IMG/VR virus record: IMGVR_UViG_3300031867_000045
Span: 1 to 64,000 of that record
Length of the DNA: 64,000 nucleotides
Strand: one strand, 5' to 3'
From: a virus
Shown piece after piece: positions 2,427 through 52,988 of this stretch (position 1 is its first letter; the number at the start of each line of letters is the position of its first letter). The position numbers were made by a program, and so were the translations under genes. The notes under the pieces were generated by a model, which was not told where the DNA came from, made no database searches, and saw only the letters and a list, made by a program, of their open reading frames with translations.

Positions 2427-2437
2427 TACTATCTCCT

Positions 2438-3399: not shown

Positions 3400-3422
3400 A
3401 TGTATTTTCCTTTACTTGTTCA

Positions 3423-3946: not shown

Positions 3947-4022
3947 TGGTAGCTCTGGCGGGAGTCGAACCCAGCGTCACACGATTGAGAGCCGCGTATC
4001 TTAACCGCTTGACTACAGAGCC
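3947..4022 (-). tRNA. tRNA, anticodon tentatively CTC (Glu)
   Basis: 76 nt; D-arm gtca...agcggtta; anticodon stem cgcgg/tcgtg (two G-U pairs), loop ctCTCaa; T-loop ttcgact; ACCA encoded. Confidence 0.4.
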
Positions 4023-4239
4023 ATATAGATTATCCAACAACCGCCGTTAATTAGTGGCGACCCGATTTTTACGTTTATCGGAAAACGCTTTTTTGATCGG
4101 CAATTTATTAATCGCATAAGCCTTATAGCGATAATCTCTGTTGTTGGCTTTTGCCGTCTTTCCAGCTGTCGTCGATGGTTTCATTCCGAATCCAAGAATA
4201 AAACCAAGAGAAGAAATTTAAAATGAACTTAGCGGTTCA

Positions 4240-4692: not shown

Positions 4693-4838
4693 ATATTATA
4701 GAAACTTGTTACCGACATTTGCGGAAAGAAAGTTGTTGGCAAGCGCACATTTTACTAAAACTTGCCGATTTGACGATGTGCTTTAATTTAGTTAATGGTA
4801 TATATCGATGCCAATGGGCGTACCGCCAAGAATGGCGG

Positions 4839-4933
4839 TGGCGGAGCGGGTGGGACTCGAACCCACACACCGAGATCGCTCGGCTACTTTCTGTGTAGCA
4901 AACAGATACCTTACCAATTAGGTTTACCGCTCC
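4839..4933 (-). tRNA. tRNA-Ser (anticodon GCT), class II with long variable arm
   Basis: 95 nt; anticodon stem tctgt/acaga, loop ttGCTac; long variable arm; T-arm gtggg-ttcgagt-cccac; CCA encoded. Confidence 0.7.
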
Positions 4934-5550: not shown

Positions 5551-5989
5551 ATTATTCGTTCACCTATTCGCCTATTCAATTTATGGAACTTTGCACTCCG
5601 CAAATATTTAATTTATCACGGAGTGCTTACCGCTCCATATATCCCGCGACTTCCGCCAAAACTATTATGTATCAAATGGTTGCCTTTTGCGAGCCGCGAG
5701 GAATATAGTTTGTTACCTTAGCTGTTATCTCTTTGAATGTTGCAATCAATCTCAGAAGTAGGTTGCTATCCTAATCGTTTATCATCAATTCCGTAGCCAA
5801 TTCGGAAAGATGGATAATCGAAGCCGTGAATCCCGACTCAACATATTGTTCATTTCGCTAAAATGTCACAAAACACGCTGCTTTAGTTGAAACAGTACCC
5901 CATTCTTTGCGGTAAAGAATATGAAAACCCCAATTTCCATAAAGTCTATCGGATAACCAAACTTTGCGGCTAAAGGCAGTTCGACCTTT

Positions 5990-6065
5990 TGGCTGGGTCA
6001 CTCGGAATCGAACCGAGAGCGGTGGGGTCAAAGCCCACTATGTTGACCGGTTACACCACAACCCA
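5990..6065 (-). tRNA. tRNA-Gln (anticodon TTG)
   Basis: 76 nt; anticodon stem gtggg/cccac, loop ctTTGac; T-arm ctcgg-ttcgatt-ccgag; CCA encoded. Confidence 0.6.
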
Positions 6066-6225
6066 TCGTGTGATCGAGCCACAGGACTCACACCTGCGGG
6101 AATGAAGGTTAGGGTTGACTGCGCACATCTCACCTAACAGCATTTATTATTAATCTCGTTCTTTTACTTTACTTCATTACTTCATAATCCGTGCTTTTAA
6201 GAGATTTTCTTTTTGGTCAAGATGT

Positions 6226-6296
6226 TGTGGGAGTCGAACCACACCCTTCCGCCCTTACGCGGGCAGCGTGCTATCCGCTACACTATCACTCTAATC
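6226..6296 (-). tRNA. atypical tRNA-like element (possible pseudogene), anticodon unresolved
   Basis: Canonical D-arm (tagtgtagcggatagcac) and T-loop (ggttcgactccc) are present, but I cannot fold a 7-nt anticodon loop or a matching acceptor stem. Confidence 0.3.
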
Positions 6297-6387
6297 TCTG
6301 CCACCCATCAACAAAATTGTACGGTTTCATTAATGGTTGTACGTTGTGGCACATTTCATATGGCTTTATACTCACTACTCGATCAAA

Positions 6388-6461
6388 TGGAGCGAATAAA
6401 GGGATTTGAACCCTCACAATCAGAATGGAAATCTGATGTGCTACCGTTACACCATATCCGC
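6388..6461 (-). tRNA. tRNA-Gly (anticodon TCC)
   Basis: 74 nt; anticodon stem tcaga/tctga, loop ttTCCat; T-loop ttcaaat; CCA encoded; acceptor gcggata/tattcgc. Confidence 0.7.
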
Positions 6462-8320: not shown

Positions 8321-9061
8321 TTAGAATGTATACCCGTCCATTAATCTCATTTTGAATTTATTTTTCTGATGGAGTGCATCAATCTTGTTCTTTACTGCCC
8401 CATCTTCGCAAATGCCTGTCCGAATATACCGATCAAGCGTTTCGTATGTAAAACCCAGGTTTTCCTCGTCAGTCTTTCCGCACAAACCATCTGATGGCTC
8501 TTTATCCATCAAATAGTCCGATAATCCGAGAGCATACCCAATGTCAATGACTTCACTTTTTGTAAACGGGGCAAGCGGCGACAAATCACCAACAGAATCT
8601 CCGTATCTCGTTGAATATCCGATATAGTCCTCAGATAAATTGCAAGTATTGACAACTCTACCGTTACTGCTCTGTGAAACAGCGTATAATGCAGCCATGC
8701 GGATTCTCGCAGGGAGATTGGTAGTTGTCTGACCGGAAATATTAAGAGTAGGCTCTTTTTCCATTCCGTCTAAAATTCCATCTACGGAATTGCCGATATT
8801 GATGGTAAAACTCTTAATTCTAAGAGTATTCACAAGCGTTTCAGCATATTTAATATCGTCCTGCTCGTGGTCTGGAAGTAAAACGCCGATGACGCGGTTT
8901 TCTCCCAAAGCCTTTACGCACAACGCGGCAACCACAGAGCTATCAATTCCGCCGGAAATTCCGACAATGGCTTTTCCAAAATTGCTATTCTTTCTGAACC
9001 AATCCTTAATCCATTCAGCACACTTTTCAGCATGATAATTTCCAAATCCAAATCTATTCAT
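8321..9061 (-). CDS. nadE: NH3-dependent NAD+ synthetase
   Basis: 246 aa; SGGIDS PP-loop motif and overall NadE-like sequence (GISGGIDSSVVAAL...). Confidence 0.75.
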   Translation of the reverse strand: MNRFGFGNYHAEKCAEWIKDWFRKNSNFGKAIVGISGGIDSSVVAALCVKALGENRVIGVLLPDHEQDDIKYAETLVNTLRIKSFTINIGNSVDGILDGMEKEPTLNISGQTTTNLPARIRMAALYAVSQSSNGRVVNTCNLSEDYIGYSTRYGDSVGDLSPLAPFTKSEVIDIGYALGLSDYLMDKEPSDGLCGKTDEENLGFTYETLDRYIRTGICEDGAVKNKIDALHQKNKFKMRLMDGYTF

Positions 9062-10530
9062 TAGAAATCACCGCCGTGCAAAGTTTTTCTGATTTCTTTC
9101 AGACTGGTTTCTTTCAGCATTTCACCATCACGGAAAATAGGCTTTAACATATTGCAAGGATCATTACTTGCTTCTTCCCAAGTCTTTTGATCTGTATAAG
9201 CAATCCCGCCATAATAATCCTCATAAACAAGACAACAACCCTTTTGAGAAGTCTTGAATCCGCCCTCTTTCGGGTCTTTGAAAATGGGAGTAGGCTTTCC
9301 GTCAATCTCACAATATGTCGCCTTAATACAAGAACTGAAAGTATCACGAGTAAACGGTTTTAGAATCCCATCTTCTTCAATGCACTGGAATGAGAACGAA
9401 CCGACACCGAGAGATACATTACAAGCCGCAAATCCGTTTTCTTTGAGAATTTCATAAATCTTCTCGCAACGCTGAACGGTAATTGAATCACCGTACAGAG
9501 CTTTCACACGAGGATCGAGGACTTTATATCCCTTGCTATTAATATAACCGCCGAACTGATCCCATAACTTGAATACCGTCTTTGTTACGACTTCCACGCA
9601 ATCGCCGGAATCTCCGCGCATAAGCATACAACCATTATGGTTCATAATTTCCTTTTTGAGTTTCGGAAGTACGTTATCAATTACATTCCAGTAATCATAA
9701 GAATCCAAAACGCAAGAAAATGATGTATTCGGGTAAATCTCCGTCAACAGTCTGCGGAGCAAAGTAATTTCATCACCGTCAACCGCAAAATTAGAACACA
9801 TTACAGAATGTTCGGTACTCGGAGCGCCAAATCCAACAGGTTCATTTTTGCAATCACAATTATAATTCTTTTCCAAATACGGAATTGCGGGAACCGTTGC
9901 AGTATTCAAGAATGAAAGCAACCAACCCGCAGCCGCCTTCGTTGCAGACTGTAAACATTCCTCACCGCGAAAATCAAAATCTCCCAACGCTCTTGCTCTC
10001 GGCATATCGTCGTCACAGGTTTCAGCATAATACTTGTTCACGATTTCACGATAAGTTGCGCCGACGGTGGCAGCCAACATGGGGTGCCACATTTCAGCCG
10101 AGATCAGCGATTCAAGCGACTGAGGAAGCCATGCAAAATCGGGATGGGTATTTGTGATTCCGAACATCGGAACGTGCATAGGCACTTTCGTTCCTTCGGG
10201 CAACGCCACAATTTCAATGGGTAAATATCCGAGATTATGCAGTTTCTTGATTTTGTTGATATTATATGTATCTTTTCCAAGAGTGGCGTCCATGATTCTT
10301 TGATATTCAACCAAAATCAGGTCGAGGGGCTTTTCAAAAAATTCTCTGTTGAAGTAATCAATCAGATATTCCTTAATAAATCCCTGCAATCCAAAGAATA
10401 CAACTTCATTCCAGCGCTTTACTCTGCTCATTCTCGGAGTAAAATAAGATACCGATTTTGTGATCTTTTCCGGCAACATTTCAGCGTGTACCGCCTTATA
10501 GTAGTCGATCAATAACATCGGATTCGTCAT
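9061..10530 (-). CDS. nadV: nicotinamide phosphoribosyltransferase (NadV/NAMPT)
   Basis: 489 aa; NAMPT-like blocks (DSYDYWNVI, LMRGDSGD, GVGSFSFQ...TRDTF) and the right length. Confidence 0.75.
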   Translation of the reverse strand: MTNPMLLIDYYKAVHAEMLPEKITKSVSYFTPRMSRVKRWNEVVFFGLQGFIKEYLIDYFNREFFEKPLDLILVEYQRIMDATLGKDTYNINKIKKLHNLGYLPIEIVALPEGTKVPMHVPMFGITNTHPDFAWLPQSLESLISAEMWHPMLAATVGATYREIVNKYYAETCDDDMPRARALGDFDFRGEECLQSATKAAAGWLLSFLNTATVPAIPYLEKNYNCDCKNEPVGFGAPSTEHSVMCSNFAVDGDEITLLRRLLTEIYPNTSFSCVLDSYDYWNVIDNVLPKLKKEIMNHNGCMLMRGDSGDCVEVVTKTVFKLWDQFGGYINSKGYKVLDPRVKALYGDSITVQRCEKIYEILKENGFAACNVSLGVGSFSFQCIEEDGILKPFTRDTFSSCIKATYCEIDGKPTPIFKDPKEGGFKTSQKGCCLVYEDYYGGIAYTDQKTWEEASNDPCNMLKPIFRDGEMLKETSLKEIRKTLHGGDF

Positions 10531-11393
10531 AGATTAAACACCTCGATTTTAGATGGCATTAAGTCAATATCTTTCGCATACTTCTGCGTACTCTTGACAA
10601 AAATGCTATCTGTAGTATATAGTTTCTCGATTAAATCTCCGTGTAACAATTCACCACGAAAAACGGTAAATTCACAATGAGTTACAAATAGATATATCTT
10701 ATCCGCGCCGAGTTCTTTTAACTTCTTCGCAGAATGTAAGAATGTTCCGCCTTTACTGCAAATATCATCAATGATTAAAACTATTTTGTTTTTAATCAAA
10801 TTTGTATCTCCGCAAACATCAAGCCCAAGAATATTTCCAGTTTCCCAATCTCGCCGTTTGATACCAAAAGCGTATGGTCGATTGATCTTGCCGGAATACC
10901 GTTTCATGGCACCTTCATCGGGAAAGAATATCGTTGGATTTGTTATGTAATTATCCTTGCAAACATTCTTAATTGCCTGTTCGATATAGGGAGTAGGTTC
11001 CAAAACGGTCAAATTATCGAACAACGCTTCACTCACAGAAGAATGAGGGTCTAAGACAACCACATTCAAGAATTTCAGCGCATTGATAAATTCCGCAAAA
11101 TATTTCAAAGTGAAAACATCCGATTTTCCCTTTACCCTATCCATTCTGGCGTTCGGAATATACGGCAAGAATAGCTCAACATCATAACCCAATCTTTGCA
11201 GGTGTTTTGTCAGAAATAAGATTGCTGCCATTTCACCGTCATTCTCGTAATGCCATGAAATAGTCACGGATTCTTGAATAGGCTCGACAGACTTCAACTC
11301 GGGTTTCAAGTGCAAAGTTCCATCGGGAAAATGATCGAGGACAACTTCGTTTCCATCAATTTTAATCATTCTGTTACCTCGTCGATCTGGCAA
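10527..11393 (-). CDS. prs: ribose-phosphate pyrophosphokinase (PRPP synthetase)
   Basis: 288 aa; PRPP-binding loop IVLIIDDICSKGGTF and PRPP synthetase N-domain. Confidence 0.7.
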   Translation of the reverse strand: MPDRRGNRMIKIDGNEVVLDHFPDGTLHLKPELKSVEPIQESVTISWHYENDGEMAAILFLTKHLQRLGYDVELFLPYIPNARMDRVKGKSDVFTLKYFAEFINALKFLNVVVLDPHSSVSEALFDNLTVLEPTPYIEQAIKNVCKDNYITNPTIFFPDEGAMKRYSGKINRPYAFGIKRRDWETGNILGLDVCGDTNLIKNKIVLIIDDICSKGGTFLHSAKKLKELGADKIYLFVTHCEFTVFRGELLHGDLIEKLYTTDSIFVKSTQKYAKDIDLMPSKIEVFNL

Positions 11394-11929
11394 GAGTGCA
11401 TGACCATCTTAGCAGCGTTATGTAATTCGGGAGTCACACCCGCACAACAAGAGAAGTCACAAGCGATTTGGATTTCCGGCGCGGCTGTCTTGATAACCAG
11501 TGCGTTAGTCACTACACAAATATCGGTACACAATCCAACAAGTTCAACGTAATCGAATCCGCCCTGAACAACAGCCTGAGCCAATGCGAAAGAGCCGAAA
11601 GACTCCTTCAAGAAAACTCTTTTATCATCGTTGTAAGTGAATTTTTCGTTCTTCTCGGCAAGACGATCTCTGAAAGCCTTTTCAATGGTTGGATTCAACT
11701 GCCAACCCTCGGTATGTAAGATACAGTGTTTCACGGGCAAGTGTTTGCCCTCATTAGAATCGAGGTATGAGTCCTCAAAATGTGTGTCATATGTAGCCGC
11801 GATCTCACCGTCGAATGTTTTGATTTTTTCTGCAACCTTATCAACGATTGCCATAGCTTCGGGAGTTCCGAGAGAGCCGTCAATAAAATCGTTTTGACAG
11901 TCAACCACGACAAGTAAACGTTTTTCCAT
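11366..11929 (-). CDS. pncA: isochorismatase-family nicotinamidase (PncA-like)
   Basis: 187 aa; VVVDCQNDF N-terminal motif and catalytic-cysteine block GLCTDICV typical of PncA. Confidence 0.65.
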   Translation of the reverse strand: MEKRLLVVVDCQNDFIDGSLGTPEAMAIVDKVAEKIKTFDGEIAATYDTHFEDSYLDSNEGKHLPVKHCILHTEGWQLNPTIEKAFRDRLAEKNEKFTYNDDKRVFLKESFGSFALAQAVVQGGFDYVELVGLCTDICVVTNALVIKTAAPEIQIACDFSCCAGVTPELHNAAKMVMHSCQIDEVTE

Positions 11930-12687: not shown

Positions 12688-13689
12688 TTATTCTGTCGGA
12701 AGATATAACCTCAATCGAGTTTTAATGTCTGCCGCTCTTACATCTGATGATACACCAAATTCAGAAGCGATTGATAGTAACTCATTTATATCATCGGAAT
12801 TGCGGAAGGACATAACTAATTTTTTAGTATGTTCCAAACCACATTTTTCGATAAAGAAATCATACATTCCGAGCCAATATATATTACGAAATGTGATCTT
12901 TAAATCATACCAATTTCGTATATATTCTGACAATAACTTGTTTAACGCGATTGCAACCTCTTTTTCCGGTCGTTCATCAAATGTATCTTCATGGCTGGGA
13001 CTTACAACAAAGTGCATATAACTACCATTCCAACTTCTCATTAACGAATTACGGAAAGAATTGAAAGTCGTTGTTTGATGATTGGCTTGAAGCAAAGTGA
13101 TTGTTCTCACATCAAGTTTAACAACTCTGCCCGGCAATACCACTTGCCTTGTTCGGAAATTAATATCCTTTTCTTTTAGATTGATAACTTCCGACAATTC
13201 ATAAAATCCACAATGGAATAAACCGCACAACAATTCAATTAAATCGGCACGATCATTCTTACCTTGCTTTCTCATATCGGTGAAAATATCCAGTAAATCT
13301 TGCCATTCCAAAGGCTTCGCAGCAGTTTCTAATATTTTCATCAATCCCTTGTTCCCTTTTAGATCGGGTGATCTCAACCAAATTGGAATAGGCTCAATAT
13401 TATATGAGTACCACTCGCAAACAACCGTCAACATGAGTTTCACTTGTTTATAAGTGAAGAACAAAATCGGCGACTGTTCTTTGGGATCAAGCGACTGTGT
13501 AAGAAGCACACGCACGAGCTGTATGGTTTCCTCTTTATTCATATCGACAAGTTCTTTACCGATCTTTTCCTCATACTTAAACAATAAATCATTGTCGATT
13601 GTATTTCTAACGGTATTCCTGCGGGTTTGATTATAACTTTCGTCAGCATAGAATCTGTCTAAGAGTTCTCTTGTGGATAATTTTCCCAT
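12688..13689 (-). CDS. hypothetical protein
   Basis: 333 aa; no confident motif. The central region (LIELLCGLFHCGFYELSEVINLKEKDINFRTRQVVLPGR) weakly resembles tyrosine-recombinase box I but lacks the catalytic Arg. Confidence 0.4.
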   Translation of the reverse strand: MGKLSTRELLDRFYADESYNQTRRNTVRNTIDNDLLFKYEEKIGKELVDMNKEETIQLVRVLLTQSLDPKEQSPILFFTYKQVKLMLTVVCEWYSYNIEPIPIWLRSPDLKGNKGLMKILETAAKPLEWQDLLDIFTDMRKQGKNDRADLIELLCGLFHCGFYELSEVINLKEKDINFRTRQVVLPGRVVKLDVRTITLLQANHQTTTFNSFRNSLMRSWNGSYMHFVVSPSHEDTFDERPEKEVAIALNKLLSEYIRNWYDLKITFRNIYWLGMYDFFIEKCGLEHTKKLVMSFRNSDDINELLSIASEFGVSSDVRAADIKTRLRLYLPTE

Positions 13690-15053: not shown

Positions 15054-16025
15054 TTATTTCGCAACTCCTTCGATTAAGCTCATAAACTCATTCATGGCTT
15101 CAATATGAATCGCAGGATCAGAATTTCCGGCGTTCTCTGCCCCACTCTGATAAACCATAGCAATAATATCACGCAGGTCTGCAACATCGAGCGTCATAAC
15201 GGGATTTGTAGATTCCGCAGTGAAATTTTCGCCGCCCTGAACGTGCCTATTATAGAAATCTCCAAAATCCTTGAAATACTGATCGACCTTGCTTTTTGTC
15301 AAGCCGATATATCTCTTGGTGGTTTTCGTATCGCTATGATTGTAAATGGTCTGCAAGAGTTCCATGCTGTCATAGTCATTCGGGTGCAGCATACGACTGA
15401 TCTTTCCGAAAGTCTTTCGTGTGCTGTGCGTTCCAATATTGTATTCAATCCCGCAATTTTCCGCTGCACGTTTCAGCGCTTTTCTCCAACCATCGGGAGA
15501 AAGAACGTTGCCTTTTCCAGTTCCCGAAAGCTGCATGAATACAAATCCGTGATAGTTTTCCGCAGATGGATCACAGCCCGTCTTTTCGAGATACAGATTA
15601 ATGGCGTCCTTGCAAGCCTGATTGATATAAGGATTCGCCAGTTTGTCGGTCTTGTCCTCTACGATTTCCATTAATTCCGTGCGAAATTTTCCGTTTTTCG
15701 GATTAAAGAAATGTTCCCATGTCAAGCTCAGAGTATCACCGACACGACGAGCCATATTCAAAGAAATCACAAACAGCATATAATGAAGCCATGATTTGTT
15801 TTCAATAAAGTAATTCATCATTTTCCGCAAATCCGCGACTTCAAATGCGAATACTTCCGACTTCTTGCCCTTCTGCTTGTTTTGCTTGATCTTCTTGGGC
15901 TTGCCGTCCTTACGAAGTTTCGGGGCATTTTCCGGCTGAGGATCAACAGGCATTTCGGTAAAGAAAGTCTGTCCGGGAAAAAGTGGTGATGTTACCATAA
16001 CGGTATTAGTCTGAATATTTTTCAT
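15054..16025 (-). CDS. int: tyrosine-type site-specific recombinase (phage integrase)
   Basis: 323 aa; box I ARRVGDTLSLTWEHF, box II/III HSTRKTF...LLQTIYNHSDTKTTKRYI (R-H-R-Y catalytic residues); basic N-terminal arm. Confidence 0.75.
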   Translation of the reverse strand: MKNIQTNTVMVTSPLFPGQTFFTEMPVDPQPENAPKLRKDGKPKKIKQNKQKGKKSEVFAFEVADLRKMMNYFIENKSWLHYMLFVISLNMARRVGDTLSLTWEHFFNPKNGKFRTELMEIVEDKTDKLANPYINQACKDAINLYLEKTGCDPSAENYHGFVFMQLSGTGKGNVLSPDGWRKALKRAAENCGIEYNIGTHSTRKTFGKISRMLHPNDYDSMELLQTIYNHSDTKTTKRYIGLTKSKVDQYFKDFGDFYNRHVQGGENFTAESTNPVMTLDVADLRDIIAMVYQSGAENAGNSDPAIHIEAMNEFMSLIEGVAK

Positions 16026-17669: not shown

Positions 17670-18200
17670 TCAAGATTTTCCGGCATTGTTATTCTCCTTT
17701 CCAAGCCCTAAAATCAAGTCCATGAAGTTCCATTTTCTCCGTCCTTCCCATACTTGTGAAGAAAACATTGGAGTATAGAAAATTTCCTGCCCTTCCTTTT
17801 CATCAGGAAATAATACGTGTACTCCCGTCGCTGGATTTGATAATGTATCTCCGATCACAACATATCCAGCACAACCAAGCAGCGATAATTGAATGTAGCA
17901 CATTAAGGCGACAATTCTGCTAATATCCTGAGCAATAAACAAAGCATGATTCTGATAATCAAGCTCATTTTTCCGCATGACGTTTGCCGCAGCGATCAAT
18001 GTAGCACCAGCGCCACAAGCACAATCATAAATCGTAGTCCACCCGCGATTCTTGATATTTTCCGCTATGCCGTCATAATTGATCTTAGACATCATTTCAC
18101 ACAAATGATAAGGTGTGAAGAATTGACCCGCCCAATGGTTGCCTAATTCAAGGCTCATATAAAGATGACCGAGGAAATCTTGATCGGGATTTTCCGTCAT
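17670..18200 (-). pseudogene. N6-adenine DNA methyltransferase-like, C-terminal part (motifs X and I), separated from its N-terminal part by an in-frame TAA
   Basis: GQFFTP (motif X) and IYDCACGAGATL (motif I) are present but there is no clear NPPY/F motif IV. ORF 18204-18434 is in the same frame and ends in TAA, one codon before this ATG. Confidence 0.45.
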
Positions 18201-19245: not shown

Positions 19246-21180
19246 TTAGTTATTCCTTCCGTATTCAAATACCGGCTTGTAAGTGTTGAAAATCGGTTTC
19301 AGCCCTTTTTTAAGGCAATAATCAATTACAATGTCAAACTGCTTCGGATCACAAGCTGAGATAATCGATCTCTGAATACTTACACCAGGCGTTTTACTCT
19401 CGACAGGCGTATAGAAAATATCTTTCGGAATATCCACCCAGCCGTCATAAATCAGAGCTTCGCCATAAATGCGAATTGAGTATAAGCCGCGCTTTCTCGG
19501 CAGCTTTACAATCAGTTTCACGGTGTTTTCGTACTGTGCATATTTTCCGATCTCGTAACTCTCGAATGTTACATGGTTGATCGATACCCAGCCGAATCCA
19601 TTAGATTGTATGACGGTATATTTTCCGCCCTGTTTCATATCGGCATATCGCATTTGATCTACCCTATTAATGGTTTCATTCAGTACACGATACATACAAT
19701 ACTTGAATTTTCCGACAGGAATAGCACGAACGATATTAACGTTGAACGGCACTTTATGACTATTGATGTAATTAACCATCTCGGCGCGGAACAGTTCAAA
19801 ACCCATTGAATTGTAATCACTTTCGGATTTATCATCATCAACAATGTAATCACTGTTGGCAGCGAGAATATCGTCCTTTGCCTTTTCCAGTTCTTCCGCC
19901 ACGGCTTCGTATTCTTTGAGCTTTTCCAATGTCATGGTGCCGGTGTTCGGTGCGAAAGTTTCCGTCACAACAGATTTTTCATCAACCTCATACACATAAC
20001 GACCATAATTATATCCCTGCGGATCAATAACCAGTTTCAAAACGTTTTCACAATAAATGGCAACACAATTTGTATTGTACCACTCAACTGTTTCACGTTC
20101 TTCCTTGCTCATGCGGGTGTAATCTTCCATATCCTTAACTCTGTAATCATCAGTATCGGAACCACCCATCTGTTCAAGGAACGAAAAATCAGTAATAAGA
20201 TGTTCATTGATAAACAGATTGTAAATATACTCAGACATGAATACTTTTCTTGCGATCTTGCAATTCACACGACCATGACGAGTATAATATTCATCTTCCT
20301 TTGAATCAAGATTGGGTACTTTGTTAGCAACCAACTTAACGCCTACCGCCCACATTTCGCAATCTTCCGTAGTGTGATTTGCTTCGATCTCGGCGGTTTC
20401 CGCTTCCATACGCTTTCTAAATTCTTCTGCACGTTTCCGGGCAATCTCATACTCGCGCATGGCTTCTTCATGTTCACGCTGCTTGCGTTCTTCCTCGGAC
20501 TTCTCAAACTCAGCAAGATCAATTTTGAATTGCTCGGAAATCGTATGTTCACCGACTGTTTCCTCGCGCTGTTCATACTCATATCTGCTTACAATATTAT
20601 TAGGATGATAGGAACCGTAAAAATTGACATCGAAATAGTCAGAATAATAATCGGAATTGTTATAATTATAACTATCAACAAATCTATAAACATACTCTGC
20701 GATAGCCTGTACCTCTGCGCTCTCACGATCCCAGGGACTTGACTTCATGGTAACGTCGATAGAATTATAATCCGATCTTACCGACCATTTGCACATCGGG
20801 AATCTCGCGCGAATGTGCTTACGAATAATAGTGGCGATCTCTTTGGTGTCGGTCAAATGGCTTTCCGCGTAATGATTCTTGATATTATCCGTTCTCGTCA
20901 TTTCAAACAGATTATAAGGTTTCTCGGACTTTTCGAGAGATTTCTTGACTTCGGCACAATTATCAAGGCTGTTAGCAAATGCCATACGCTCGTCGCTCTG
21001 CTTTGCGTACCACATTTTCTGCTTACCGCTCCAACGAAAACCGTTTGTCTTTAAACCCTCGATCACGCTTGCCGCGGGCTTACAATCAAATCTGATTTCG
21101 ATTCCGTTTTTCTCGTTATTGATCGTGATTGTCGTCATTTTGATGATCTCCTTTACTTGCGTTGTTGTCGTTGTTTTCAT
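19246..21180 (-). CDS. large hypothetical protein (644 aa) with a central charged coiled-coil
   Basis: Long ORF with its own consensus promoter (21188-21238); EEERKQREHEEAMREYEIARKRAEEFRKRMEAE coiled-coil; no recognisable catalytic motif. Confidence 0.5.
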   Translation of the reverse strand: MKTTTTTQVKEIIKMTTITINNEKNGIEIRFDCKPAASVIEGLKTNGFRWSGKQKMWYAKQSDERMAFANSLDNCAEVKKSLEKSEKPYNLFEMTRTDNIKNHYAESHLTDTKEIATIIRKHIRARFPMCKWSVRSDYNSIDVTMKSSPWDRESAEVQAIAEYVYRFVDSYNYNNSDYYSDYFDVNFYGSYHPNNIVSRYEYEQREETVGEHTISEQFKIDLAEFEKSEEERKQREHEEAMREYEIARKRAEEFRKRMEAETAEIEANHTTEDCEMWAVGVKLVANKVPNLDSKEDEYYTRHGRVNCKIARKVFMSEYIYNLFINEHLITDFSFLEQMGGSDTDDYRVKDMEDYTRMSKEERETVEWYNTNCVAIYCENVLKLVIDPQGYNYGRYVYEVDEKSVVTETFAPNTGTMTLEKLKEYEAVAEELEKAKDDILAANSDYIVDDDKSESDYNSMGFELFRAEMVNYINSHKVPFNVNIVRAIPVGKFKYCMYRVLNETINRVDQMRYADMKQGGKYTVIQSNGFGWVSINHVTFESYEIGKYAQYENTVKLIVKLPRKRGLYSIRIYGEALIYDGWVDIPKDIFYTPVESKTPGVSIQRSIISACDPKQFDIVIDYCLKKGLKPIFNTYKPVFEYGRNN

Positions 21181-28264: not shown

Positions 28265-28771
28265 TCATAACTCACTGGAATAATCAACCTTAGCGCCGTC
28301 AAATCCGCCGTATGTACCCGTGATTTCAAGGCTGCCGACAAGCTCTGAATTGATCCTATTGAGCGGAATAAAATCTAATTTGCCGGTATTGACGGGCTTG
28401 CCGATCTTGCTAACAGAAATTGTGATATGAGGATTTGAAATAGTAAAAAATTCTTTTGCTAAATCGTTGGATTCTGTAGTGTGTAAACAAACCGATACGC
28501 CCTGATTGTTTTCGTCGCAAGCATATCCAATGATATTGAATGTTGCTTTTTTGCCGAAAAGCGCGGGATCGATCTTGCTCGGTCTGAACGCAAAGGTGAT
28601 ATGCGGATTATCAATCACGCGGTAAAGCCTTGTTTTTGTGATCTTATCAATAATGTTTTGTAATTCTTCTTGATCGAAAAATACACCTGTATAAATATAT
28701 GCCATGTTATATCTCCTATCTGATAATATAGCAATTACGTCTTGCATTATATTGCAAAACAACTTGCCCAT
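28265..28771 (-). CDS. 2H phosphoesterase family protein (LigT/CPDase/Acb1-like)
   Basis: 168 aa with two H-x-T-x motifs at the expected spacing: NPHITFAF and NPHITISV. Confidence 0.55.
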   Translation of the reverse strand: MGKLFCNIMQDVIAILSDRRYNMAYIYTGVFFDQEELQNIIDKITKTRLYRVIDNPHITFAFRPSKIDPALFGKKATFNIIGYACDENNQGVSVCLHTTESNDLAKEFFTISNPHITISVSKIGKPVNTGKLDFIPLNRINSELVGSLEITGTYGGFDGAKVDYSSEL

Positions 28772-36491: not shown

Positions 36492-37001
36492 TTATGCAAT
36501 TTGCGGGATGGATTCCGTTGCTATCGTTTCCGATCCCCATTTTTCTTTTAATTCATCCAGGTTTTTATGTTTAGGATAACGGCTATAGTGTACATAATAT
36601 TCCGGGTGCCAATACCATGCCTTCTTTTTACTCCCCCATTTAAAGCCTAAATCCTTTAATACATCTTTGTATGGATATGTATTTCCTGTGATCCAGATAA
36701 AGATTCCTACAAGTTCAATAGTGATATTAGGAATGTGAATTAAACCGTTAATGACTTTTTTAAATTCGGCGGGGATTTCAGTTTTTGCCGATTCGGTTTT
36801 ATTTTCGTATGTTTTACCGTCTACCGATCTATGAATATTTTTATACTTTTCAAATGCTATTTCATATTCGGCATTGATTTCCTTCATGATTTTATTGGAT
36901 TCTGCGGAATTGTTATTCCTATCGGGATGATACTTGAATATCAATTTGTGATATCTGCTTTTTACATCTTCAATACATTTACACTCTGTAAACCATTTCA
37001 T
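36492..37001 (-). CDS. J-domain (DnaJ-like) protein
   Basis: 169 aa; YHKLIFKYHPDRN contains the HPD tripeptide in J-domain helix II-III context. Confidence 0.55.
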   Translation of the reverse strand: MKWFTECKCIEDVKSRYHKLIFKYHPDRNNNSAESNKIMKEINAEYEIAFEKYKNIHRSVDGKTYENKTESAKTEIPAEFKKVINGLIHIPNITIELVGIFIWITGNTYPYKDVLKDLGFKWGSKKKAWYWHPEYYVHYSRYPKHKNLDELKEKWGSETIATESIPQIA

Positions 37002-45038: not shown

Positions 45039-45794
45039 ATGATAGGAATATATAAATTTACAAACAAATTAACAGGCAAATCTTATATCGGACAAAGTAG
45101 AGATATACATAAAAGATACATTCAACATAAATGTAGGCACGAAATATGTTTACACGAAGATGCGCCAAAAGAAGATACATACTTCCATTCAATGCTTAGA
45201 CATTATGGATTTCATAATTTTGATTTTGAAATTTTAGAAGAATGTGAAATATCGGAATTGAACGAAAAGGAAGTTTATTATATTCAAAAATACAACACTT
45301 TATATCCGAATGGTTATAACAAAGATAAAGGTGGAAACACACCTCATCCTAATGCACTTAAATCTTATGAAGATGTTGATGAAATAATAGAACTGTTAAA
45401 AACAACAAAACTTTCAAATATCGAAATTGGAAACAAATATGGAGTATCAGACCAATCAATTTCAGATATAAACAATGGTAGGACTTGGATAAGAGATGAT
45501 ATTAAATATCCAATCCGAAATACATTTGAAGCAAAAAAGATTATTTGGAAATGTAATTCATGTGGGAAAGTATTATCTGGTAAAACCAAAAGCGGATTAT
45601 GCAGAAGTTGTTTGAATAAAAACATACAGGATAATTCTTCTATGCCTGATAAAGAAATATTATATAATTTATTATTACAATATTCGTTTACTTATGTGGG
45701 TGATAAATTTGGAGTTACCAGTAACGCTGTAAGAAAATGGTGTGACAAATATAATATCCCACGACATTCTTCATATTACAAAAATGTTGCTTAA
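45039..45794 (+). CDS. GIY-YIG homing endonuclease (I-TevI/Seg-like) with C-terminal zinc finger and HTH
   Basis: N-terminal GIYKFTNKLTGKSYIGQS...R...YFHSML..G..NFDFEILE...NEKEVYYIQKYNTLYPNGYN is a textbook GIY-YIG core; C-terminal CNSCG...CRSC zinc finger; sits inside the tRNA cluster. Confidence 0.75.
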   Translation: MIGIYKFTNKLTGKSYIGQSRDIHKRYIQHKCRHEICLHEDAPKEDTYFHSMLRHYGFHNFDFEILEECEISELNEKEVYYIQKYNTLYPNGYNKDKGGNTPHPNALKSYEDVDEIIELLKTTKLSNIEIGNKYGVSDQSISDINNGRTWIRDDIKYPIRNTFEAKKIIWKCNSCGKVLSGKTKSGLCRSCLNKNIQDNSSMPDKEILYNLLLQYSFTYVGDKFGVTSNAVRKWCDKYNIPRHSSYYKNVA

Positions 45795-46111: not shown

Positions 46112-47554
46112 ATGGCTAAAAAGAAATTAAAATCTGATGGAATCTTTTTCACGGGAAAAGCCTCGGAAGATGTTACTGGATCACAATACTTGGTAAAATT
46201 TGGAGAAACACAATGCCTATTAGAATGCGGCTTGCACCAATCATCAAGTAATGATTATTTAGATTCGTACAAAATCAACTCAGAGAAATTTCAATTTAAG
46301 CCAAAAGAAATTGATTATGTTTTTGTGGCACATGCTCATATCGACCATTGCGGTTTAATTCCAAGATTGGTTAAAGAAGGATTTGCCGGAAAAATTATTG
46401 CAACAAAAAATACAGCGGAAATTATGAAGCCCTTGCTTTTCAATTCTTGCGCAATAGTGCAGGAAGAAGCAAGGGTTTTGTCATATCGTTATAAAAGAGA
46501 ATATAAACCATTGTATGAACAGGCAGATGTTGAGAAAGCATTGAACATGATCGAGGTATTCAATGAGTATGATTATATTTACAAACTAAACGATAACATC
46601 AGTTTTAAATGGCTGCATAATTCTCATTGTGTCGGAGCGGCACAGCTATTATTAATATTGAAAAATGGATCAAAAACCAAAAAATTGTTATACACATCAG
46701 ATATGGGTTCATTAAAAACAAAAAATCATTATGTTACAAACACCGAAATTCCAACCGATTTTGCGGATTGCGTTATCATGGAAAGTACATATGGTGATTC
46801 TAAGAGAATTTCAAAAAAGAAACGTTCTTACGATATAGAGCATTTAAGAGTTGCTATTAATACGGTTTTGGAACGCAAAGGAACTATAATTCTTCCATGT
46901 TTTAGTTTTAGCCGAACCCAAGAATTATTGACGAATTTATACGATATTTTTTCTGGTGAAAATGATTTTAACACACCAATATATGTAGATTCAAAACTGA
47001 GTTGTGATATTAGTAAACTTTATTCATCAATTCTATCTGGTAGTGATTTAAAATTATGGGATCAAGTATCTAATTGGGATAATGTTCACTTCATTGAAGA
47101 AAAAGATGAATCGAAGTCCATCATAGCAAATACAGCCCCGAAGATAGTATTATCATCTTCTGGATTCTGCACCAATGGCAGGATCATTGGATATTTGAAA
47201 AAATATATTAAAGATAATAATTCGATGGTGGTTTTCTCTGGCTACGTTGGTGATAATCCATCATATTTATCATATCGAATCAAAAATTACCGTGAGAATA
47301 AAGGAATTAAAATCAATAAGGAATACGTGCCAAATCGTGCCGATTGTATTACATTATCTACATTTAGTAGTCATGCTGATTATAATGATTTGATTAAATA
47401 TGGCAGTTCATTAAATACAAACAAATTGATTTTAGTTCACGGATCATCGGAAGCAAAGCATTGTTTGGCGGAAGGCTTACGTCCGGCAATTTCAAAAAAT
47501 GACAAAACATATCGTGTCATAGAGTCCTATAAGGGTATGATGATACGATTATAG
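46112..47554 (+). CDS. metallo-beta-lactamase-fold beta-CASP family nuclease (RNase J/CPSF/Artemis-like)
   Basis: 480 aa; MBL motifs (HAHIDHCG = HxHxDH motif 2, downstream His/Asp ligands) followed by a beta-CASP-like C-terminal region. Confidence 0.55.
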   Translation: MAKKKLKSDGIFFTGKASEDVTGSQYLVKFGETQCLLECGLHQSSSNDYLDSYKINSEKFQFKPKEIDYVFVAHAHIDHCGLIPRLVKEGFAGKIIATKNTAEIMKPLLFNSCAIVQEEARVLSYRYKREYKPLYEQADVEKALNMIEVFNEYDYIYKLNDNISFKWLHNSHCVGAAQLLLILKNGSKTKKLLYTSDMGSLKTKNHYVTNTEIPTDFADCVIMESTYGDSKRISKKKRSYDIEHLRVAINTVLERKGTIILPCFSFSRTQELLTNLYDIFSGENDFNTPIYVDSKLSCDISKLYSSILSGSDLKLWDQVSNWDNVHFIEEKDESKSIIANTAPKIVLSSSGFCTNGRIIGYLKKYIKDNNSMVVFSGYVGDNPSYLSYRIKNYRENKGIKINKEYVPNRADCITLSTFSSHADYNDLIKYGSSLNTNKLILVHGSSEAKHCLAEGLRPAISKNDKTYRVIESYKGMMIRL

Positions 47555-47565
47555 GGGGTAACAAT

Positions 47566-48183
47566 ATGGCATTAAATATGGAAAATGTCACAGAAAATTT
47601 CTCATACGAGTATTACGATAGATTCTTAATAGAAGATATTGAAGATAGAAGAATTTTTATTAATTCTGAAATTGATGAAACAGTTGTTGATTTGGCTTTG
47701 CATCATATCATCGAATTTAACAGGCAAGATAAAGATGTTCCCATCGAAAAACGCAAGCCAATTCGTGTTTATATTAACTCACCAGGGGGAACGGTATCTG
47801 ATGGATTTGGTTTCATAGATAGCATCATCAATTCTAAGACACCTGTTTATACGATTAATCTTGCACAAGCGGCGTCAATGGCATTTTTGATTTTTATTGC
47901 AGGGCATAAGAGATATACGATGCCCCATGCGGAATTTTTAATGCACGATGGCAGCACCGGAAGTTTTGGCAGTTCTTCTAAAGTAAAGGATCGTATTGAA
48001 TTTGAGTCTATTCAATTAGAAGGAATGACGAAGCAATATGTGATTAGCAGAACTAATATAGATGACGATTTATATGAAAACAAACGTCGAGTTGAGTGGT
48101 ACTTTCTTGCAGATGAAGCCAAGGCTATCGGAGCCGTAGATGTAATCGTTGGCAAAGATTGTGATATTGACGAAATTTTATAA
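47566..48183 (+). CDS. ClpP-family serine peptidase (S14)
   Basis: 205 aa; INSPGG, catalytic-Ser context AASMAFLIF, His context FLMHDGSTG, all co-linear with ClpP. Confidence 0.65.
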   Translation: MALNMENVTENFSYEYYDRFLIEDIEDRRIFINSEIDETVVDLALHHIIEFNRQDKDVPIEKRKPIRVYINSPGGTVSDGFGFIDSIINSKTPVYTINLAQAASMAFLIFIAGHKRYTMPHAEFLMHDGSTGSFGSSSKVKDRIEFESIQLEGMTKQYVISRTNIDDDLYENKRRVEWYFLADEAKAIGAVDVIVGKDCDIDEIL

Positions 48184-48204
48184 TTAATAAAAACAAGGAG
48201 AGTT

Positions 48205-49407
48205 ATGAGTTTTAAAAGATTAGAAAATGAGAACGAAGAACAATTCTTGTGGCGGCTGGGACAAGCCAAAGATAAAGGGCTGGTTGATTTAAGTTGGGAT
48301 GATATAGCTTCAATTATGAACAAAGAGTTTAGAGAAGATATTTCCGAATATCGGAGCGAAGCTGCTTATCGAAAACCTTATCAGCAAGCTAAACGATTTT
48401 ATGAAAATGGAACATTTCAAGATTTGACACAAGAGTTGTATATAAAAGAACTTAGAGATGCAAAACATGAAGTTCGTATTGAAAAACAAAAATTATTCGA
48501 CGAGCGCACCGCTCTAAATAAGATTCTTAGAGAATCCGCAAGAGCGGAGGAAGATTTAGCTCGTTTAGAAGTGTTGATAAGAGAAAATGGTGAAACCGTT
48601 TTCCAGAATACTTGTCCGGAAATCAAAACAGCCGACAATGATTTGGTTGTTTGTTTATCTGATTTTCATTTAGGTATGAATACAAATAATTATTTTGGAA
48701 TCTACAATTCTGAAATTGCGGAAAAACGACTTCAAGATTATTTACAGCAAATAATTGACATAGCAGAATTACATAAATCAGAAAATGTATACTTAATTCT
48801 GCTCGGTGATCTCCTAAGTGGTCAGATACATTTTACAACACAACTTGAAAACCGCGAAAATGTGACGCAACAAGTTCAAAAAAGTGCTGAATTGATTTCT
48901 GCATTTGTTTATGAATTAAGCCGACATTTTTCTGCTGTATATGTAAATGGAGTCGCAGGTAATCATTCACGCACTTCATTTAAAGATCAAGTTCTAAGAG
49001 ACAATAGATTAGACAATCTGATACCTTGGTATATGAAAGCAAAACTATCTCATGTTGATAACATCAAATTTATTGACGATCAAAATATAGATGCTACAAT
49101 CGGGTGCTGCGAAATTCGGGGGCAAAAATATTTGATGGTTCATGGTGATTTCGATAGTTTTAGTGAATCAGGTGTTTCAAAACTCGTGTTAATGCTCGGA
49201 TATAAACCATCTGCTATTTTTTATGGTCATTTGCACCGCTGTTCATACGACAGTATAGCTGGCGTCAAAATCATAAGGAGCGGTAGTTTTTGCGGAACTT
49301 CCGATGATTACACAATTTCAAAGAGATTAAGTGGATCAGCTTCACAAATGGTTTGTGTTGTAACAGATAAAGGAGTACGGACTTGTTATCCGATTGATTT
49401 AAATTAA
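48205..49407 (+). CDS. calcineurin-like metallophosphoesterase (Mre11/SbcD-like) with N-terminal coiled-coil extension
   Basis: 400 aa; phosphoesterase motifs DFHLG (I), LLGDL (II), GNHS (III), VHGDFD, GHLH in canonical order in the C-terminal 250 aa. Confidence 0.6.
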   Translation: MSFKRLENENEEQFLWRLGQAKDKGLVDLSWDDIASIMNKEFREDISEYRSEAAYRKPYQQAKRFYENGTFQDLTQELYIKELRDAKHEVRIEKQKLFDERTALNKILRESARAEEDLARLEVLIRENGETVFQNTCPEIKTADNDLVVCLSDFHLGMNTNNYFGIYNSEIAEKRLQDYLQQIIDIAELHKSENVYLILLGDLLSGQIHFTTQLENRENVTQQVQKSAELISAFVYELSRHFSAVYVNGVAGNHSRTSFKDQVLRDNRLDNLIPWYMKAKLSHVDNIKFIDDQNIDATIGCCEIRGQKYLMVHGDFDSFSESGVSKLVLMLGYKPSAIFYGHLHRCSYDSIAGVKIIRSGSFCGTSDDYTISKRLSGSASQMVCVVTDKGVRTCYPIDLN

Positions 49408-50260: not shown

Positions 50261-51181
50261 ATGCCAAAACCAACAGGGAAAAGCGAGTGCTGCTGTTGCG
50301 GTGAATCGCTCTCCCCCACTCATTTTTATAAATCCAATAGTGGATTTTATAAAACAGGTCGCTTACCTATTTGCCAAGATTGTTTTAAGGCAAAATTTGG
50401 GCAATATGCGGCTGAATATTTAAGTAATAAAAAGGCTATGCAACGAATGTGCATAGCCTTTGACATTTATTTCAACGAAGATGTTTTTGATAAATGTGAT
50501 AACAATGATGAAACAGTTATTGGAAATTATTTTCGGCAATTAAACTTATCACAATGTAAAGGAAAAACTTTTGAGCATACAATCAACGAGGGTAATTTCA
50601 CGTTATCCGGCGCAAGAAAAACCGTCAAAGATGGTGGTCGCGTTGCCGTGGTTGATGAATACGGAAACGAGAACGAAGAAGTATCTGTTGATCCTAAAGA
50701 TGTTGAACGCTGGGGTGAAGGATTAGACCCTGTTGATTATGTGAATCTCAATAACCATTATCAATATTTGAAAAATGCGAATCCTCATTGTGATAGCAAC
50801 CAAGAAATTTTTATAAACGATCTTTGTTACGCGAAAATGCAACAACTTCAATGCGTTCGCAGTCAAGATAGAGATGGGTTTAAGAAAATGGGCGAATATT
50901 ATAATGCAACATTTCAAAAGTCAGGTTTAAAAATATCTAACGACTCTGAAAATAAAGGGGACGATACCCTTGGAACTTGGCTTGGAAGAATTGCTCAGTA
51001 CACTCCCGAAGAATATTACAAAAATAAAACATTGTATCAGGATCACGATGGATTGAGAGATTACATCGAAAGGTTCTTATTGCGTCCATTAAGAAATTTA
51101 CAACATGGAACTAAAGATAGAGATAGAGAGTTCTATGTTAAGGAAGATGGTGAAACTCGTGAAATTGACAACTCCGACTAA
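50261..51181 (+). CDS. hypothetical protein with N-terminal zinc ribbon (small terminase candidate by position only)
   Basis: 306 aa; CCCCGES...CQDC ribbon; lies immediately upstream of and overlapping the large terminase ORF. Confidence 0.3.
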   Translation: MPKPTGKSECCCCGESLSPTHFYKSNSGFYKTGRLPICQDCFKAKFGQYAAEYLSNKKAMQRMCIAFDIYFNEDVFDKCDNNDETVIGNYFRQLNLSQCKGKTFEHTINEGNFTLSGARKTVKDGGRVAVVDEYGNENEEVSVDPKDVERWGEGLDPVDYVNLNNHYQYLKNANPHCDSNQEIFINDLCYAKMQQLQCVRSQDRDGFKKMGEYYNATFQKSGLKISNDSENKGDDTLGTWLGRIAQYTPEEYYKNKTLYQDHDGLRDYIERFLLRPLRNLQHGTKDRDREFYVKEDGETREIDNSD

Positions 51182-52988
51182 GCCATACAAAAGCCGCTAT
51201 GCGGATAATAAACAATCAGAACTATATACAAAATTTCCTACCACCAATTTTCTTGGAAACCCTCAAAATGTAGACCATGTTTTAAAATGGTGTACTTTCT
51301 TTCGTAGAAATTTACATCGTGTAGCAACAGATTATCTTGGATTAAAACTACATATGTATCAAGTTTTGGTTTTGTATTTAATGGGTATTTGTAAAACAAT
51401 GGTGATTGTTGCCGCTCGAAGTGCTGCAAAATCATTCATTATTGCAATATACGCTTGTTGTGTATGTATTGTTTATCCATATTCTGAGGTCGTATTAACC
51501 TCTGCAACAAAGAAACAAGCTAAACTTATTGTTTCGGCAAAGATACAACAGTTGCAGAATTTCTCTCCTGTATTGAGAAAAGAAATAACAAAAATTAAAG
51601 ATAACCAAAATGAAGTAATTGTATTTTTCAGAAGTGGAAGTACAATCACGGTTGTCCCTGCTAACGAAAATGGGCGCGGCTATAGGTCAAATTTTGCTAT
51701 TCGAGAGGAATTTAGACAAATCAAAAAAAATATAGAAGATAGTGTTATTGCTCCGTTCCAAGTTATTAGACAAGTCCCTTATATGGTTGATCCATATTAT
51801 GCTGATATGCCAGTTGGAGTTTGCATTCAAGATTCAGTTGATGTTTATATCAGTTCATCTTGGCTTGATCCGCATTGGATGTGGACTGTTGTTGATAATG
51901 CGTATGAATCAATGTTGGATGGAACTGGGCAATTCTTGATAGCTTTTGACGAAAGTATAGTATTAAAACATAAAATCAAATCGCAGGATTATTACCAAAA
52001 AGAAAAGAAGAAACAAGATAGAATCACATGGGAATGTGAGTTCTTAAATGTTCGTATTAAGGAAAACCAGTTTGCTTTCTTTACATATAAGATGTTTAAT
52101 GACAATCAACATTTAAAACAAGTATTCTATCCAAGAACTACTGCTGATTTTATTATTGGTAGGAAAAATCCATATGCGATATCAAAACAAAAAGGTGAAA
52201 TCAGATTAATCGGAGCAGACTTATCATTTGTGACCCGCAAAGGTAATGATAGGTCTGTTTTTACTTGTATGAGATTATTGCCAGAAACAAAGAGGTATAA
52301 ACGCTCAGAAATGGATGATCTCGAAGTAAGTGGTGGTTACAGACGTATTGTTCCATATATGGAATCATTGCAGGGTGGCGAGATAAGTAATCAAGCACAA
52401 AGGCTAAGACAATTATATGAAGATTTTGAAGCGGATTATATTGTCCTCGATTGCCGGAACGCCGGAATAGCTGTATATGACTGTCTTGCAAGAGTAATGT
52501 ATGACGAAGAACGCAAGGTCGAATATTCACCTTTAAAATGTATGAATGACGAAGCAATCGCAGATCGAATCCAATCGGAGGGTGCATTGGAGTGTATATA
52601 TGCTATAAATGCTTCTCAAAAGCTCAATAGCGATATTGCATTGGATTTTTTACGTGTATTGGAACAAGAAATGATTAATTTCCTTATTCCGTATGAATCT
52701 GCGCAAGACGAAATTTTATCTCAAAATGATAACTATTTAAGTACGCCCGATGCGGACGTTCAATTCTTTTATGAAAGTCCATTTCTTGAAACACAGGCTT
52801 TAATTACAGAATGTATCGAACTGTCTTACGAAAAGAAAGAATCTGGAATAATTGTTGTCAAGGAAGGTTCAACATCACATAAAGACCGTTATTCTTCATG
52901 TAGCTATGCTTCATATGTAGCAACATTATTTGAAAAAGATTTATTTTCCGTTTCAGACGAGTACGCATACGGCGTTTATATTAACTAA
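51105..52988 (+). CDS. terL: terminase large subunit
   Basis: 627 aa; Walker-A-like VIVAARSAAKS after LHMYQVLVLYLM; size and position ahead of the portal; the true start is probably internal, because the listed start overlaps the upstream gene by 77 nt. Confidence 0.55.
   Translation: MELKIEIESSMLRKMVKLVKLTTPTKPYKSRYADNKQSELYTKFPTTNFLGNPQNVDHVLKWCTFFRRNLHRVATDYLGLKLHMYQVLVLYLMGICKTMVIVAARSAAKSFIIAIYACCVCIVYPYSEVVLTSATKKQAKLIVSAKIQQLQNFSPVLRKEITKIKDNQNEVIVFFRSGSTITVVPANENGRGYRSNFAIREEFRQIKKNIEDSVIAPFQVIRQVPYMVDPYYADMPVGVCIQDSVDVYISSSWLDPHWMWTVVDNAYESMLDGTGQFLIAFDESIVLKHKIKSQDYYQKEKKKQDRITWECEFLNVRIKENQFAFFTYKMFNDNQHLKQVFYPRTTADFIIGRKNPYAISKQKGEIRLIGADLSFVTRKGNDRSVFTCMRLLPETKRYKRSEMDDLEVSGGYRRIVPYMESLQGGEISNQAQRLRQLYEDFEADYIVLDCRNAGIAVYDCLARVMYDEERKVEYSPLKCMNDEAIADRIQSEGALECIYAINASQKLNSDIALDFLRVLEQEMINFLIPYESAQDEILSQNDNYLSTPDADVQFFYESPFLETQALITECIELSYEKKESGIIVVKEGSTSHKDRYSSCSYASYVATLFEKDLFSVSDEYAYGVYIN

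Follow-up and report, generated by a model that had tools for sequence, protein, structure and literature searches.

The stretch of DNA analysed here, positions 1 to 64,000 of the IMG/VR virus record IMGVR_UViG_3300031867_000045 (64 kb, referred to as the window), is phage-like, has a G+C content of 37.6% and encodes a small predicted phosphoesterase of the 2H superfamily, P0001, whose possible function is considered below (Table 1). A minus-strand block of mostly small genes extends from 668 to 37622 and is followed by a plus-strand block; the 2H gene sits among small early open reading frames (ORFs) of unknown function and is oriented on the minus strand, a correction to the original prediction. 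As that prediction had stated, an ORF extends from 28265 to 28771 and its 168-aa translation contains the sequences NPHITFAF and NPHITISV, but the product is most likely 146 aa long. Translation very probably begins with the ATG at 28705 (MAYIYTG...), because an AGGAG sequence is found 7 nt upstream, the neighbouring ORF upstream terminates at 28716, the homologues all begin with M-x-Y-I-Y-T-G, and two independent gene calls on public contigs yield the identical 146-aa protein. The 168-aa reading was thus rejected as a probable upstream over-extension. Also, the two histidines lie at a distance of 58 residues (H35 and H93 of the product, corresponding to H57 and H115 of the 168-aa ORF), and not of about 90 as had been proposed for the motif spacing. 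All functional readings of the gene discussed here are in silico.

When all six frames of the 64 kb were searched for ORFs of 50 aa or more, no ORF other than the 2H gene had two H-hydrophobic-[TS]-hydrophobic motifs 40–120 residues apart. An AlphaFold2 model based on a seven-sequence alignment (predicted local distance difference test score (pLDDT) 85.4, predicted template modelling score (pTM) 0.82) has the bilobed α+β fold of the 2H superfamily, with hydrophobic x in the two H-x-T/S-x motifs and each HxT on a β-strand (residues 35–39 and 93–95). Residues F9, H35, H93 and T95 are invariant across 110 diverse representatives of the protein family described below, T37 is conserved in 109 of them, Y5 in 108, T107 in 98 and V105 in 88, and position 40 is aromatic (F/Y) in 108. 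The paired HxT motifs are not due to chance, since they are unique among the ORFs of the window, near-invariant in the family and located on β-strands of the predicted 2H fold. The assignment to the 2H family in the original prediction is borne out, as the confidently predicted fold holds both motifs and neither lies outside it. The phage enzyme is best explained as a catalytically intact and metal-independent phosphodiesterase.

No sequence match to P0001 was obtained in Pfam, PHROGs, NCBIfam, PADLOC or PDB, and a profile of the 110 family sequences likewise gave no usable match in searches of these resources. A word-indexed search returned only 7 relatives; an exhaustive HMMER search with a profile of these 7 retrieved 788 cluster representatives (clusters at 50% identity) at E ≤ 1e-3 and 457 at E ≤ 1e-10. 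The members are mostly 125–150 aa long and those named in public sources are listed as 'hypothetical protein'; the bacterial homologues of the phage protein all come from metagenome-assembled genomes (MAGs) of gut Clostridia. Among the 110 members, sub-threshold matches were seen to several models of the 2H clan, namely LigT_PEase (11 members), 2_5_RNA_ligase2 (9), Acb1 (5), 2H-SAK (3) and tRNA_lig_CPD (2). As these matches are scattered over the clan and none reaches the gathering threshold, the phage gene belongs to a previously unannotated family of the 2H clan.

Based on the predicted structure, the closest fold match is the branch formed by CNPase and the cyclic phosphodiesterase (CPD) domain of tRNA ligases. 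In a Foldseek search against PDB, the catalytic domain of CNPase occupies ranks 1–47 (E from 9e-4, probability 1.00), followed by E. coli LigT and then by a fungal tRNA-ligase kinase-CPD entry. In CNPase, the base is sandwiched by Phe235 and Val321 and the ribose is touched by Tyr168, and the β5-α7 loop (residues 319–321) is said to be specific to CNPase among 2H enzymes (PMC4643303). Mouse CNPase, checked against PDB, reads Y168-F-G-W-F, H230-C-T-T-K-F235 and H309-V-T-L-G-C-A-A-D-V-Q-P-V321-Q-T-G, and the phage protein reads Y5-T-G-V-F, H35-I-T-F-A-F40 and H93-I-T-I-S-V-S-K-I-G-K-P-V105-N-T-G. Both thus have an aromatic residue at His+5 and a valine at His+12 that is preceded by proline and followed by x-T-G. 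By these identical offsets from the histidines of the two HxT motifs, Y5, F40 and V105 would be equivalent to Tyr168, Phe235 and Val321, respectively. With hhalign, the second half of the protein aligns with CNPase in the same register, with weak statistics (probability 4%). The phage protein has no match to the Pfam CNPase or tRNA_lig_CPD models, and weak matches to the latter were seen in two of the 110 members. CNPase also differs in length (about 215 versus 146 aa, the phage protein being about 70 residues shorter) and in the spacing of its histidines (79 versus 58 residues), and it is a vertebrate protein without coupling to a CorA-like protein, whereas the family described here is prokaryotic or phage-borne and, in bacteria, mostly occurs together with a CorA-like membrane protein (see below). 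On the strength of the model, the fold and nucleotide-binding residues are best explained as being closest to the CNPase/tRNA-ligase-CPD branch.

Several family members are fused to other domains. For instance, P0067 and P0163 carry a Pnkp-type kinase N-terminal to the 2H domain (AAA_33, 1.7e-22; TIGR04075 kinase region, 5e-18), which in NCBIfam is matched best by the kinase part of bacterial Pnkp, and in P0119 a polynucleotide-kinase-like P-loop domain is found C-terminal to the 2H domain. The N-terminal placement is shared with CNPase and Trl1: a kinase followed by a CPD is how both CNPase and the healing half of the fungal tRNA ligase Trl1 are built (PMC7145591). In P0132 the 2H domain is fused to an HD/HDIG domain, and in P0086 to a second, canonical LigT-like 2H domain. 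The gene for P0163 (4734-5690 of contig L025) is located in an island that also encodes an AAA_2 ATPase, a ThiF/E1-like protein, an M50 peptidase, a transglutaminase-core protein, a NADase_transloc protein and a 1381-aa HSP70-AAA protein, and which looks like a conflict system.

The original prediction had weighed LigT and Acb1 as relatives and held that sequence alone cannot discriminate between them. This was a fair judgement; structure, domain fusions and genome context discriminate in part, and point to a CNPase/tRNA-ligase-CPD-like cyclic phosphodiesterase. LigT does not hold as the family: membership of the LigT/ThpR group (PF02834, PF13563, TIGR02258) was rejected, as the phage protein has no Pfam or NCBIfam match, and hhalign aligned nothing to E. 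coli ThpR (probability 1%). E. coli ThpR/LigT shares with the phage protein the superfamily and probably also the chemistry (conversion of RNA 2',3'-cyclic phosphate to 2'-phosphate). The predicted chemistry of the phage protein, in which a CNPase-like site would hydrolyse the 2',3'-cyclic phosphate of a nucleotide or a phosphodiester much like it, is well supported.

The window contains 19 tRNA genes as identified by ARAGORN, and genes for a Tpt1/KptA RNA 2'-phosphotransferase and a Thg1-like enzyme are embedded in one of the tRNA clusters (Table 1). The closest genes to the phage Tpt1 are kptA of large C. difficile phages (phiCD211-like; 62–64% identity), and a pattern search of IMG/VR for close Tpt1 relatives found none. 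The Tpt1 gene directly adjoins a tRNA-Lys(UUU) gene (1236-1310, minus strand). The Thg1-like gene is located near a phage tRNA-His gene (1547-1620, minus strand), which suggests that G-1 addition or repair of tRNA 5' ends is phage-encoded. ARAGORN also identified an ochre-suppressor tRNA (anticodon UUA, reading UAA; 285-357, minus strand); both gene blocks use TAA more often than any other stop codon (42 of the 62 genes checked), and the large ORFs show no indication that TAA is recoded. Four contiguous genes form a nicotinamide adenine dinucleotide (NAD+) module, in which no nicotinamide mononucleotide (NMN) adenylyltransferase was recognized. Judging by context, the module could feed Tpt1 with its cosubstrate, or might counter NAD+-depleting defences.

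In the KptA-2H route described for phages, the 2H enzyme opens 2',3'-cyclic phosphates to 2'-phosphates and KptA moves the phosphate to NAD+, producing ADP-ribose 1'',2''-cyclic phosphate (ADP-ribose>p), which 2H enzymes are also able to open (PMC9503650). Like the medium-sized and jumbo phages with KptA/Tpt1-2H systems (Iyer et al. 2022, PMC9503650), the phage described here combines KptA/Tpt1 and a single 2H protein with tRNAs and NAD+ salvage. Hence, we tentatively favour the hypothesis that P0001 acts as a 2',3'-cyclic phosphodiesterase in the healing of RNA ends together with Tpt1, based on the presence of Tpt1, the investment in tRNAs and Thg1, the NAD+ module, and relatives fused to kinase or HD domains; the substrate, the regiochemistry of the product and the functional coupling to Tpt1 are what we infer from them. 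In the predicted enzyme, H35/T37 and H93/T95 would face each other across a cleft, with the nucleotide base clamped by F40 and V105 and Y5 placed against the ribose, as in CNPase, and hydrolysis of the 2',3'-cyclic phosphate would yield a 2'-phosphate. Host ribonucleases (anticodon nucleases, HEPN or toxin RNases) would cut tRNA or other RNA and leave 2',3'-cyclic phosphate ends, which the 2H enzyme would turn into 2'-phosphate/3'-OH ends. Next, the phage Tpt1 would strip the 2'-phosphate using NAD+, partly supplied by the phage NAD+ module, and the by-product ADP-ribose>p may be opened by the same 2H enzyme.

Several observations weigh against RNA end healing. In contrast to the KptA/Tpt1-2H systems already described, the 2H protein is from an unannotated family and its gene is 27 kb away from Tpt1 and the tRNA cluster, a placement that related phage contigs share. 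Neither Pfam at relaxed threshold nor scans for P-loop and KxDG motifs revealed an RNA ligase or 5'-kinase in the window, and a 333-aa ORF (12688-13689) that was checked in the search for repair partners has no PDB match; a complete heal-and-seal pathway is therefore not recognizably encoded in the window. There is also no 2H gene within 12 kb of kptA in the phiCD211 group, which has the closest annotated phage kptA, so the pairing of KptA with a 2H enzyme is not obligatory. Lastly, the partner of most bacterial members of the family is a CorA-like membrane protein and not an RNA-repair gene.

This CorA-like protein, referred to as X (about 430–485 aa), is the commonest fusion partner of the 2H family. 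Fusions occur as X-2H (P0025, P0031, P0048, P0080, P0082 and P0123) and as 2H-X (P0037, P0045, P0092 and P0110). Each of the five Clostridia MAG loci found with the 2H query has a separate X gene directly upstream, oriented like the 2H gene, and in a metagenome scan seeded with X a family 2H gene was found directly downstream in 25 of the 25 loci that retain the 3' end of X and downstream sequence. The same arrangement is present in L002, L017/L018 and L021; L019/L020 are exceptions and carry X alone. The X-2H loci (L012-L021 and L027-L056) come from Clostridia MAGs and gut metagenomes. X has no Pfam match and matches two PADLOC 'CorA-like' models over their C-terminal 55–60% (E 7e-16 to 9e-9). 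It lacks a GMN motif and has two hydrophobic, potentially transmembrane, segments at its extreme C-terminus. In its AlphaFold2 model (pLDDT 84), an α/β domain at the N-terminus is followed by a helix of 60 residues and by a last helix; as modelled, X has a CorA-type topology, in which the α/β domain, a long helical stalk and two transmembrane segments at the C-terminus succeed one another. Near the X-2H operons examined, no cas10 or other cas genes, no genes for cGAS/DncV-like nucleotidyltransferases (CD-NTases) and no other signal-generator genes were found, and the neighbours are housekeeping genes. In L014/L015, the X-2H operon comes after a gene for a 933-aa HSP70-like protein. The CorA-like pairing is a trait of the bacterial homologues and not of the phage gene: the 64-kb window contains no X homologue, and a tblastn search with X against phage and plasmid collections gave no usable match.

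The association with X resembles that of the CorA effectors of type III CRISPR systems, which are 'obligately associated with degradative enzymes' and sometimes fused to them (PMC10600005). In both cases a CorA-like membrane protein is paired with an enzyme, which is NrN, DEDD or S-adenosyl methionine-AMP (SAM-AMP) lyase for CRISPR CorA; in the bacterial homologues it is a small-molecule phosphodiesterase, the 2H protein, in an operon or fusion with X. Orphan copies of the enzyme are also found in phages, as with the phage SAM-AMP lyase AcrIIIB4, and a phage homologue of a CorA-associated degradative enzyme has been proposed to be an anti-CRISPR (PMC12255297). Hence, P0001 could be an anti-defence enzyme that is Acb1-like in logic and not in family. 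The Clostridial 2H proteins would be dedicated phosphodiesterases hydrolysing a nucleotide ligand of X, and the orphan copy of the phage would destroy this ligand early in infection, so that the effector is never triggered. We regard this as rather unlikely, although worth serious consideration. It is in line with the location of X directly upstream of the 2H gene in the MAG loci, the X-seeded loci and L002, L017 and L021, with the fusions in both orders, with the PADLOC matches and the topology of X, and with a phage gene that sits among small early ORFs in a phage without X; also, a ligand with a 2',3'-cyclic phosphate would suit CNPase-like chemistry, in which case RNA end healing and ligand degradation share their chemistry. 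However, with housekeeping neighbours and no signal generator near the X-2H genes, a role of X as a defence effector or as a ligand-gated protein is supposition, a neighbour-joining tree (no bootstrap support) places the phage copies in a clade that does not include the X-linked ones, and the phage Tpt1 is a simpler partner. In contrast to CRISPR CorA systems, the enzyme has a 2H fold and not a DHH, DEDD or PII-lyase fold, cas genes are absent nearby, X matches the PADLOC models only in part and the window has no CorA-like gene. A bolder version, which we consider unlikely, is that gut Clostridia contain a widespread and unrecognized two-gene module of a CorA-like effector and a CNPase-like 2H enzyme, with the phage gene as an orphan off-switch used early against its ligand. 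Such a module would work like CRISPR CorA with NrN but stand alone, and its ligand would possibly be a nucleotide from RNA cleavage with a 2',3'-cyclic phosphate.

The idea of a signal-degrading enzyme in the original prediction therefore fares differently in its two forms, with the broader idea gaining support outside CBASS (cyclic oligonucleotide-based anti-phage signalling systems) from the CorA-like partner of the bacterial homologues, and the Acb1 form not being supported as family membership. A true Acb1-family anti-CBASS enzyme, which would cleave 3'3'-cyclic GMP-AMP (3'3'-cGAMP), cyclic triadenylate (cA3) and related CD-NTase products, is very improbable. T4 Acb1 (gp57B) is likewise small, encoded by a phage as a stand-alone 2H enzyme, close in length (152 versus 146 aa) and built on the common 2H fold, and the best of the sub-threshold Pfam Acb1 matches in 5 of the 110 members has an E-value of 0.02. 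But equally weak matches are more frequent for LigT_PEase and 2_5_RNA_ligase2, the phage protein has no match to the Pfam Acb1 model PF23474 even at E ≤ 1, and in an hhalign comparison the family profile and T4 Acb1 align only over 17 columns around the second HxT motif (probability 17.5%). Acb1 structures are not the nearest structural neighbours of the phage model, the match to CNPase being better by almost 4 Z units, and no CBASS association was seen in the homologue contexts examined. Acb1 family membership, as the original prediction had envisaged it, was thus rejected. It is also improbable, though less extremely so, that P0001 acts solely as a scavenger of free nucleotides (2',3'-cyclic nucleoside monophosphates or ADP-ribose>p) for the nucleotide or NAD+ economy of the phage. 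The CNPase-like mononucleotide clamp, the NAD+ module together with a Tpt1 that generates ADP-ribose>p, and the activity of 2H enzymes on this compound (PMC9503650) are consistent with such a role; however, the 2H gene is not adjacent to the NAD genes, and the proposal overlaps with RNA end healing.

What is new is an unannotated family inside a known superfamily, together with its near-obligate pairing with the CorA-like membrane protein X. This 2H family is sizeable (788 representatives) and lies outside Pfam, PHROGs, NCBIfam and PADLOC, and phage and gut-bacterial genomes are consequently under-annotated for it. As a prokaryotic and phage relative of CNPase that apparently keeps the clamp residues regarded as 'unique' to CNPase, it bears on the origin of the CNPase/tRNA-ligase CPD branch. 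If P0001 acts in RNA end healing, it would supply the missing step that opens the cyclic phosphate before Tpt1, giving a ligase-independent route from 2',3'-cyclic phosphate to 2'-phosphate to 2'-OH that is tied to the NAD+ supply of the phage. The pairing with X repeats, free of CRISPR and with another enzyme fold, the unexplained rule of type III CRISPR systems that CorA needs a degradative enzyme, and the X-2H pair could be a tractable system for studying it. Should the two-gene module exist as hypothesized, the phage gene would represent a new class of anti-defence enzyme directed against a new signalling effector.

Table 1. Position of the 2H gene, its motifs and other features in the 64-kb window
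Feature	Position	Strand	Basis or remark
Coding sequence of the 146-aa 2H phosphoesterase (P0001)	28265-28705	minus	stop codon included
Shine-Dalgarno-like AGGAG	28713-28717	minus	7 nt upstream of ATG at 28703-28705; read from sequence
Motif 1, H35-I-T37-F38, putative catalytic His/Thr; F40 at His+5	28592-28603	minus	sequence
Motif 2, H93-I-T95-I96, then S-V-S-K-I-G-K-P104-V105-N-T107-G	28418-28429	minus	sequence
tRNA cluster, 9 tRNAs, with Tpt1 and Thg1-like genes embedded	285-6461	minus	ARAGORN; presumed clients of RNA end repair
Tpt1/KptA RNA 2'-phosphotransferase	668-1213	minus	PF01885, E 7.9e-50; LRH, RANQGHS and GRRHG motifs in translation
Thg1-like tRNA 3'-5' polymerase/nucleotidyltransferase	2438-3211	minus	PF04446, E 5.2e-30
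Homing-endonuclease-like, PD-(D/E)XK and NUMOD1	4924-5550	minus	
SPFH/Band 7 (stomatin/prohibitin-like) protein, 549 aa	6525-8174	minus	
NAD+ module, four contiguous genes: NadE, NAMPT, Prs-like (phosphoribosyl-pyrophosphate-synthetase-like), isochorismatase/nicotinamidase-like	8321-11929	minus	Pfam
Tyrosine integrase	15054-16025	minus	
N6 DNA methylase fragment	17670-18200	minus	
644-aa protein with polyvalent-protein LPD29 domain	19246-21180	minus	
DnaJ-domain protein	36492-37001	minus	
Homing-endonuclease-like, GIY-YIG	45039-45794	plus	
β-CASP metallo-β-lactamase nuclease (RNase J/CPSF-like), ClpP and calcineurin-like phosphoesterase in a row	46112-49407	plus	
Terminase	51105-52988	plus	
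Portal	53004-54599	plus	

The host is probably a gut Firmicute, since the nearest Tpt1 genes are found in C. difficile phages and the bacterial 2H homologues are all from Clostridia gut MAGs, and the tyrosine integrase suggests a temperate lifestyle. A megablast search with 20 kb of the window and a tblastn search with the 2H protein against 50,697 GenBank phage records gave no match. The family-wide alignment is too diverse for pattern-based locus retrieval, and narrower alignments yielded only 4 IMG/VR contigs. In the related phage contigs L011, L022 and L062, the position of the 2H gene is retained within an early region that is partly syntenic and consists of small ORFs of unknown function. 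The phage copies in L007, L009 and L010/L063 (about 216 aa) carry about 70 additional residues at the C-terminus that are Cys-rich and conserved, and L010/L063 also encodes a 27%-identical homologue of the SPFH/Band 7 protein. The row of β-CASP, ClpP and calcineurin-like genes is located between the second tRNA cluster and the terminase gene. Both homing-endonuclease-like genes are found within or beside tRNA clusters, and a tRNA-Ser gene (4839-4933) overlaps the 3' end of the first.
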